Positions 1 to 1,213 of a stretch of DNA of 1,213 nt are shown here, one piece after another (the stretch's first letter is position 1; every line of letters begins with the position of its first letter). The notes under the pieces are model-generated. The model saw nothing but the letters and a program-made list of their open reading frames with translations, had not been told where the DNA came from and made no database searches. The position numbers and the translations under genes were made by a program. Location: the NCBI RefSeq assembly GCF_003334315.1, contig NZ_QOWR01000121.1; one strand, given 5' to 3'. The stretch comes from Escherichia coli (lineage in GTDB: Bacteria > Pseudomonadota > Gammaproteobacteria > Enterobacterales > Enterobacteriaceae).

Positions 1-852
1 GTTTTCAAATTGTTCCGGACTGAGGCCGCCACACCAACTGTGCCGCCGCCACCGATTGTAATCACATTCGATATAATTAAACACCGTTGCCCGCATTATT
101 TCCCGGCTGATAAAGTGTTCTCCATGGATACATTCCACTTTCAGCGAATGAAAGAAGCTTTCCACGCAGGCATTATCGTAGCAGCAACCTTTTGCGCTCA
201 TACTTCCACGCAGATTATGCCGCTTCAGTTGCGCCTGATAATCTGCTGAACAGTACTGGCCTCCACGGTCCGTGTGAACGATAACGTTCCGGGGCCTCTT
301 ACGCCGCCACAGCGCCATCTGCAGGGCATCGCAGGCCAGTTGCGCCGTCATGCGTGGCGACATTGACCAGCCAATAACGGCACGTGACCACAGGTCAATG
401 ACCACTGCCAGATACAGCCAGCCTTCATCTGTACGTAAGTACGTGATGTCTCCTGCCCACTTCTGGTTCGGGCCACTGGCGTAAAAATCCTGCTCCAACA
501 GATTTTCTGACACAGGCAGGCCGTGTGCGCGGTAGCTGACCGGGCTGAACTTCCGGGAGGCCTTTGCCCTCAGTCCCTGACGGCGCAGGCTTGCCGCCAC
601 GGTTTTTACGTTAAAGGGGTAACCCTGAGCACGCAGTTCATCCGTCAGGCGTGGGGCACCGTAACGCTGTTTTGACCGGGTAAAAGCCGCGAGGACAACG
701 CTGTCGCAGTGTTGGCGGAACTGCTGACGCGTGCTTATCCTTGTCCGCCGCTGACACCACGTATACCAGCCGCTGCGGGCCACCCGGAGCACGCGGCACA
801 TTGCTTTGATGCTGAACTCAGCCTGATGTTTTTCAATAAAGACATACTTCAT
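1..852 (-). CDS. insF: IS3 OrfB (InsF-like) transposase catalytic domain, DDE/integrase-like (rve). It is C-terminally truncated by the window edge: 284 codons are present and about 4 codons plus the stop lie beyond position 1.
   Basis: Minus-strand translation from the ATG at 852..850 is [36 protein letters not shown]...[35 protein letters not shown]...[16 protein letters not shown]...[25 protein letters not shown]...LSPEQFEN, open to the window edge with no internal stop. Conserved catalytic residues are D (450..448, GDITY), D (270..268, HTDRGGQY) and E (162..160, NACVESFF), with D-to-E spacing of 36 residues. It is absent from the ORF track only because no stop codon falls within the window. 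Confidence 0.93.
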
Positions 853-1148
853 TTCAGGCGCTTCGCGAAGTATGTCGCGGCCTTTTGGAGGATAGCCAGC
901 TCTTCATCCCGTTCTGCCAGCTGGCGTTTGAGACGTGCAATCTCGGTAGACATCTCCAGTTCACGTTCAGAAGACGTCTGCTGATTTTGCTGTTTACTGC
1001 GCCAGTTGTAGAGTTGTGATTCATACAGGCTGAGTTCACGGGCTGCGGCAGTAACACCGATGCGTTCAGCAAGCTTCAGGGCTTCACTGCGAAATTCAGG
1101 CGAATGCTGTTTACGGGGTTTTTTACTGGTTGATACTGTTTTTGTCAT
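1..1148 (-). CDS. Predicted OrfAB transframe transposase, made by a programmed -1 ribosomal frameshift at A-AAA-G (886..882) that fuses the OrfA N-terminus to the OrfB frame; window-truncated at the C-terminus.
   Basis: orfB is in the -1 frame relative to orfA, and the orfB frame is open upstream of its ATG through the overlap (...A-P-E-M-K-Y-V...). The slippery motif CAA-AAG-G sits in the orfA zero frame with a stem-loop 5 nt downstream. This is the established expression mechanism for IS3-group transposases. Confidence 0.8.
841..876 (-). other. Frameshift-stimulatory stem-loop (possible pseudoknot base) in the mRNA: a 10-bp perfect inverted repeat flanking the orfA stop and orfB start.
   Basis: Plus 841..850 (GACATACTTC) and plus 867..876 (GAAGTATGTC) are exact reverse complements, separated by a 16-nt loop (851..866). 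In the mRNA the stem starts 5 nt downstream of the AAAAG slippery site, the spacing typical of -1 frameshift stimulators. Confidence 0.65.
849..1148 (-). CDS. insE: IS3 OrfA (InsE-like), 99 aa: transposase N-terminal DNA-binding (HTH) and leucine-zipper protein, the regulatory product when no frameshift occurs.
   Basis: Translation [99 protein letters not shown]. The ATG at 1148..1146 has a good SD upstream; the stop TGA is at 851..849. The track ORF (849..1157) begins at an upstream in-frame GTG (MTHMTKT...), but the ATG with correctly spaced SD is the more plausible start. The HTH-like segment is [20 protein letters not shown], with heptad-spaced Leu/Ile in the C-terminal part. Confidence 0.93.
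882..886 (-). promoter_or_regulatory. Programmed -1 ribosomal frameshift slippery site (A-AAA-G)
   Basis: Minus-strand mRNA reads 5'-CUC CAA AAG GCC-3' in the orfA frame; tRNA-Lys at AAG (884..882) can re-pair with AAA (885..883) after a -1 slip, and the next codon would be GGC. The position matches what I recall of the IS3 frameshift site. Confidence 0.75.
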
Positions 1149-1154
1149 GTGAGT

Positions 1155-1160
1155 CACCTC
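1155..1160 (-). promoter_or_regulatory. Shine-Dalgarno / ribosome-binding site for orfA
   Basis: The minus strand reads GAGGTG (plus 1160..1155), 6 nt upstream of the orfA ATG (1148..1146): ...AGAGGTGACTCACATG. Confidence 0.6.
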
Positions 1161-1174
1161 TGACTGAGAGTTTA

Positions 1175-1213
1175 CTCACTTAGCCGCGTGTCCACTATTG
1201 CTGGGTAAGATCA
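1175..1213 (-). repeat. Left terminal inverted repeat (IRL) of the IS3-like element. The outer boundary at 1213 is firm; the inner boundary is approximate (IS3 IRs are about 39 bp and imperfect).
   Basis: The terminal sequence 5'-TGATCTTACCCAGCAATAGTGGACACGCGGCTAAGTGAG-3' (minus strand, 1213 to 1175) begins with the TG dinucleotide typical of IS3-family ends. The partner IRR is outside the window, so the inverted-repeat relationship cannot be confirmed here. Confidence 0.8.

Follow-up and report, generated by a model that had tools for sequence, protein, structure and literature searches.

Does this stretch of Escherichia coli DNA hold anything besides an insertion sequence, and, if not, which element is it and how much of it is present? 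The stretch in question, hereafter the window, comprises 1,213 nt, and a sequence-only reading had taken it to be IS3-type from one end to the other.

Identity and extent of the element

When the reverse complement of the window was compared with complete E. coli genomes by megablast, 1213 of 1213 bases aligned to E. coli IS3 copies at 100 % identity and without gaps. Thousands of annotated copies share this full-length identity, bearing out the claim that the whole window is an IS3-type element. The sequence-only reading had proposed a BLAST search for near-identity as its own check, and that search returns 100 % identity at full length in complete E. coli genomes. Neither an identity below about 85 %, nor a partial match, nor a non-IS insert, each named beforehand as speaking against an IS3 copy, was found (100 % over 100 % of the window, no indel). 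The annotation beneath the matching region in the complete E. coli genomes is "IS3-like element IS3 family transposase", and one identical copy in the plasmid collection is labelled insE/insF of IS3; the name used here rests on these RefSeq and PLSDB annotations of identical copies. IS3 is among the first insertion sequences to have been described, and K-12 carries copies IS3A–E, with insE corresponding to orfA and insF to orfB. By the ISfinder convention, sequences sharing more than about 95 % nucleotide identity are regarded as the same element. With a probability of roughly 97 %, the window is a standard IS3 copy (IS3 family, IS3 group) on the minus strand, from an Escherichia/Shigella-type genome or plasmid, and no sequence evidence against this was found within it.

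For the extent of the element, the window was placed on a full chromosomal copy in E. coli 720632 (L001), where its reverse complement occupies locus positions 1501–2713. The element there spans 1258 bases from locus position 1501, starting TGATCTTACCC and finishing GGGTAGGATCA, and the window represents IS3 nt 1–1213 of these in reverse orientation, such that window coordinate x corresponds to IS3 coordinate 1214 − x. The prediction of roughly IS3 positions 1 to 1213, reversed, is therefore exact in its coordinates. Window position 1213 coincides precisely with the IS3 left terminus, and the right terminus lies 45 nt past window position 1; absent from the window are the last four codons of orfB (KNLA) with the stop codon, as well as all of the right terminal inverted repeat (IRR). 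In the reference copy the termini (TGATC…GATCA) can be seen directly to form imperfect inverted repeats, with 28 of 40 positions matching, as can a 3 bp GTA/GTA duplication flanking the element within a split ydfK. With regard to the TG/CA-type ends of the IS3 family, the left one (IRL, TGATC…) is inside the window and IRR is seen in the identical copy L001 only. The features at the two ends are as follows.

1174–1213, minus strand: left terminal inverted repeat (IRL), IS3 nt 1–40, starting 5′-TGATCTTACCC; 28 of 40 positions match the right end of L001
1149–1173, minus strand: untranslated leader, read from the sequence
1154–1161, minus strand: Shine–Dalgarno-like AGAGGTGA, 5 nt upstream of the orfA ATG, putatively functional
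Beyond window position 1: expected, IS3 nt 1214–1258, …AAGAACCTCGCTTAGGCCTGTGTCCATATTACGTGGGTAGGATCA on the IS strand

The gene interrupted in L001 (locus positions 1426–1500 and 2750–2911) is ydfK, a cold-shock gene that neighbours pinQ and tfaQ within the Qin prophage region; this insertion says nothing on the insertion site of the window's own copy.

Reading frames, frameshift signal and proposed transposition

Two overlapping reading frames fill the window inward of its left end, and IRL, orfA, the frameshift region and orfB all lie where the sequence-only reading had placed them. Their features are listed below.

849–1148, minus strand: orfA (InsE), 99 aa plus TGA stop
1–882, minus strand: orfB (InsF), read in the −1 frame with respect to orfA and running off the edge of the window
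849–852, minus strand: ATGA overlap, with the orfB ATG at 852–850 and the orfA TGA at 851–849
882–886, minus strand: A_AAG −1 slip site, IS3 nt 328–332, between orfA and the −1 frame
821–876, minus strand: pseudoknot, putative frameshift stimulator, formed by stems 1 and 2
448–450, minus strand: catalytic D234, rve-type DDE core
268–270, minus strand: catalytic D294, rve-type DDE core
160–162, minus strand: catalytic E330, rve-type DDE core

OrfA possesses an N-terminal helix–turn–helix (Pfam HTH_Tnp_1, residues 12–78, E=1.4e-8) and, towards its C-terminus, a leucine-zipper-like region of heptad residues. From position 903 onwards to the end of the window the −1 frame stays open, overlapping orfA at 903–849, and at the ATGA overlap the IS3 literature would lead one to expect translational coupling. 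Joined at A_AAG, the two frames specify an OrfAB protein of 387 aa, 383 of which are encoded inside the window, with a join point and length that agree with the L001 coding sequence, which is annotated in two pieces as 'programmed frameshift' (IS3 nt 66–1228). Against the NCBIfam equivalog model transpos_IS3 (NF033516), OrfAB scores 392.7 bits (cut-off 160), with profile positions 1–369 all covered, and it further contains Pfam HTH_21 (residues 152–201, E=1e-11), rve (residues 225–321, E=2.3e-27) and rve_2 (residues 330–383, E=9.9e-19). The catalytic triad is directly visible, with a DDE spacing of 60/36 and a lysine, K337, seven residues past E330; this arrangement of D234, D294 and E330, together with K337, is the signature of the IS3 family, whose retroviral-integrase-like core follows the pattern D-(~60)-D-(~35)-E with K/R seven residues beyond the E. 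Within the window both orfA and orfB are intact, being free of mutation relative to intact IS3 copies. Amongst solved structures, no PDB sequence relative of OrfAB was found at E≤0.001.

The slip site and both stems of the frameshift region can likewise be read directly. Stem 1 pairs 876–867 with 850–841 (10 bp, 10/10 complementary, inverted repeat I5) and is found in the MFE and the centroid fold alike, whilst stem 2 joins the loop GCCUGA at 859–854 to UCAGGC at 826–821 over 6 bp, its partners having been picked by eye. Five unpaired nucleotides separate the slip motif from stem 1, the first paired base of which is at window position 876, 6 nt past the motif. Taken together, the two stems would form an H-type pseudoknot. 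The string CCUCCA-AAAG-GCCGC-GACAUACUUCGCGAAG in the window equals the IS3 frameshift cassette of Sharma et al. (PMC4066793), who tested it and found A_AA.G to be the best tetramer with the IS3 pseudoknot. Transposase activity of IS3 is, in addition, raised when the two ORFs are fused at the A4G motif (bioRxiv 10.1101/2021.11.02.466885).

Across five elements (IS3 and the four relatives described below), all 80 of 80 pair cells in the pseudoknot are standard pairs, and the only three stem changes are C-to-U or A-to-G, giving G–U pairs. The original accounts of the IS3 frameshift and pseudoknot are said to be those of Sekine and Ohtsubo in 1989 and of Sekine, Eisaki and Ohtsubo in 1994. No two-sided covariation was detected in the stems among the five sequences, and the shuffle control is uninformative, 500 shuffles having equalled the observed values. 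The structure was itself derived from this same IS3 sequence. The fold of the 133 nt region is no more stable than that of shuffled sequences (z = −0.81), a measure from MFE folding, which cannot represent a pseudoknot, and in a scan at E≤1 the pseudoknot was unmatched by any Rfam family. What argues for the putative pseudoknot is thus conservation together with the published experiments, with statistical covariation contributing nil.

The course of events proposed for this element draws on the literature for what OrfA and OrfB do, for how efficient frameshifting is and for the transposition pathway. Transcription would begin in or near IRL, and ordinary translation would yield the 99 aa OrfA, with its helix–turn–helix and coiled coil, as a DNA-binding or regulatory product. 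A minority of ribosomes, aided by the pseudoknot, would slip by −1 at A_AAG, where tRNA-Lys on AAG may re-pair with AAA and so join orfA to the −1 frame, giving the 387 aa OrfAB as the active DDE transposase; OrfB alone could initiate at the ATG overlapping the orfA stop. OrfAB would then bind the terminal inverted repeats. Copy-out/paste-in is the transposition route of the IS3 family (PMC7780238), and for IS3 it would proceed through a figure-eight to a circle with abutted ends, and from there to insertion with a 3 bp target duplication. Target duplications in the IS3 family measure 3 bp, or 3–4 bp.

Comparison with related elements

At the level of the known element the comparison is simple: IS3 of E. 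coli has the same IRL, orfA, A_AAG, pseudoknot, ATGA overlap and orfB, with zero differences within the window. The comparison also took in four further elements (L002–L005), which are 77–93 % identical to IS3 in nucleotides and comprise ISEc16 and unnamed IS3-group elements of Klebsiella/Shigella plasmids. These share the length class, the two-ORF layout and A_AAG with IS3, but at only 77–93 % nucleotide identity they are different elements or isoforms; ISEc16, for its part, has a 12 nt deletion in orfB relative to IS3 (a 141 nt versus a 153 nt segment).

Where these relatives depart from IS3, the substitutions are concentrated in the third position of codons read in the orfA and orfB frames; L005, for example, has 12, 7 and 40 substitutions at codon positions 1, 2 and 3 of orfA, and 38, 36 and 139 at those of orfB. 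The phase of substitution in the relatives follows the sense frames and not the antisense frames; visible selection is therefore confined to the transposase frames. The frameshift cassette (window 821–895, IS3 nt ~320–395) is nearly invariant in the relatives, some of which are only 77–82 % identical overall, and this invariance is consistent with stacked constraint from two reading frames and an RNA pseudoknot.

The relative from a Shigella sonnei plasmid (L002, CP104427.1, 301–1516) displays a mosaic divergence from the window. Its differences from IS3 number 0 of 65 in IRL and leader, 44 of 264 (17 %) in orfA and 36 of 882 (4 %) in orfB, a pattern that suggests recombination between IS3 variants and not uniform drift.

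Further afield, IS911, IS2 and IS150 resemble IS3 in producing OrfA and OrfAB via programmed −1 frameshifting and in combining a helix–turn–helix, a leucine zipper and a DDE domain (PMC4066793), and, as with the IS3 family generally, in copy-out/paste-in through a figure-eight and a circle (PMC7780238). They differ in belonging to other subgroups with other sequences. The frameshift signals also diverge, IS911 relying on the heptamer A_AAA_AAG together with an SD upstream of it and a stem–loop, whereas IS3 has an A_AAG tetramer and a pseudoknot (PMC4066793).

Distribution, remaining content and alternative readings

Matches to the window are present in 4685 of 5426 complete E. coli genomes by megablast, with a median of 3 matching places in each. 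Amongst E. coli records, 5871 contain a match, which covers at least 80 % in 4530 of them, and in 4092 the best match is at least 99 % identical. A further 803 plasmid records match at ≥99 %, from Escherichia, Shigella, Klebsiella, Salmonella and Citrobacter (mostly Escherichia, Klebsiella and Shigella), and in many plasmid matches coverage is only 30–55 %.

Several IS3 copies are split by other insertion sequences, namely by IS1B in NZ_CP097430.1 and NZ_CP097426.1, and by ISApl1 in NZ_CP026935.2. In NZ_OY754443.1, two overlapping IS3 pieces together span 1478 bp, an arrangement suggestive of partial duplication. The phage collection gave only two matches, both partial, and these do not indicate a phage origin of the window. 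In Escherichia phage phi467 (LN997803.1), 202 nt at the record's end (38393–38594) are identical to IS3 nt 1012–1213; this stretch is probably a prophage boundary or an assembly edge abutting an IS3 copy.

Searches of the window for anything else returned little. A scan of both strands against Rfam at E≤1 gave no match, a repeat search found no array (only short two-copy chance matches and the 10 bp pseudoknot stem), and a scan for terminators gave no terminator-like site. Two weak promoter-like sites were detected on the minus strand inside orfB (0.6 ± 0.8 expected), a result that is uninformative. Plus-strand ORFs of up to 91 aa do exist in the window. The longest (709–984, 91 aa) has lost its start and acquired in-frame stops in relatives (L003, L005), the ORF at 10–249 (79 aa) has in-frame stops in L003 and L005, and those at 523–675, 350–484 and 885–1019 are broken in some of the four relatives; all five are regarded as chance ORFs. 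The claim that nothing remained outside the element, whether cargo, repeat array or unused coding capacity, is in this way upheld, the Rfam, repeat, terminator and antisense-ORF checks all having come back empty. All bases of the window are explained by IS3, and there is no cargo, array or spare coding capacity.

The alternatives to an ordinary IS3 copy concern its completeness, its other strand and its name. The window halts at IS3 nt 1213 and not at 1258, and partial IS3 matches do occur elsewhere, both in E. coli records and in plasmids; it could accordingly be a truncated, immobile remnant without IRR, with the 45 nt shortfall marking a real deletion or rearrangement breakpoint. This is unlikely, however, as the opposite end of the window sits exactly at the IS terminus, the sequence matches intact copies at all 1213 bases, neither ORF being mutated, and the missing 45 nt are more simply accounted for by the edge of a window or contig. 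A different element of the IS3 group, such as ISEc16 or a Klebsiella/Shigella isoform, would have the same layout, as the relatives at 77–93 % identity demonstrate, but the identity of 100 % to IS3-annotated copies (InsE/InsF), as against 81 % to ISEc16, refutes this proposal and leaves it with almost no probability.

An additional antisense function on the plus strand of the window, in the form of a small protein or of a regulatory RNA, is suggested by the ORFs of 79 and 91 aa. These and the other plus-strand ORFs are, however, broken in relatives, substitutions keep in phase with the sense frames, neither an Rfam match (E≤1) nor a terminator was found, and both promoter-like sites belong to the minus strand, making such a function highly improbable. 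The comparison counts against a conserved antisense protein, but not decisively against an antisense RNA. That canonical IS3 should have an unrecognised antisense regulatory RNA or micro-protein, weakly constrained and invisible to Rfam, is similarly a very slim prospect.

The IS3 element in this window is already known, and there is nothing new in it. As an ordinary mobile element that explains the window fully, it matters little here and can be set aside. The sequence-only reading was right that the insertion target is beyond reach from the window, since the flanks lie outside it, and any biological interest would reside there, in what this IS3 copy has disrupted or activated.
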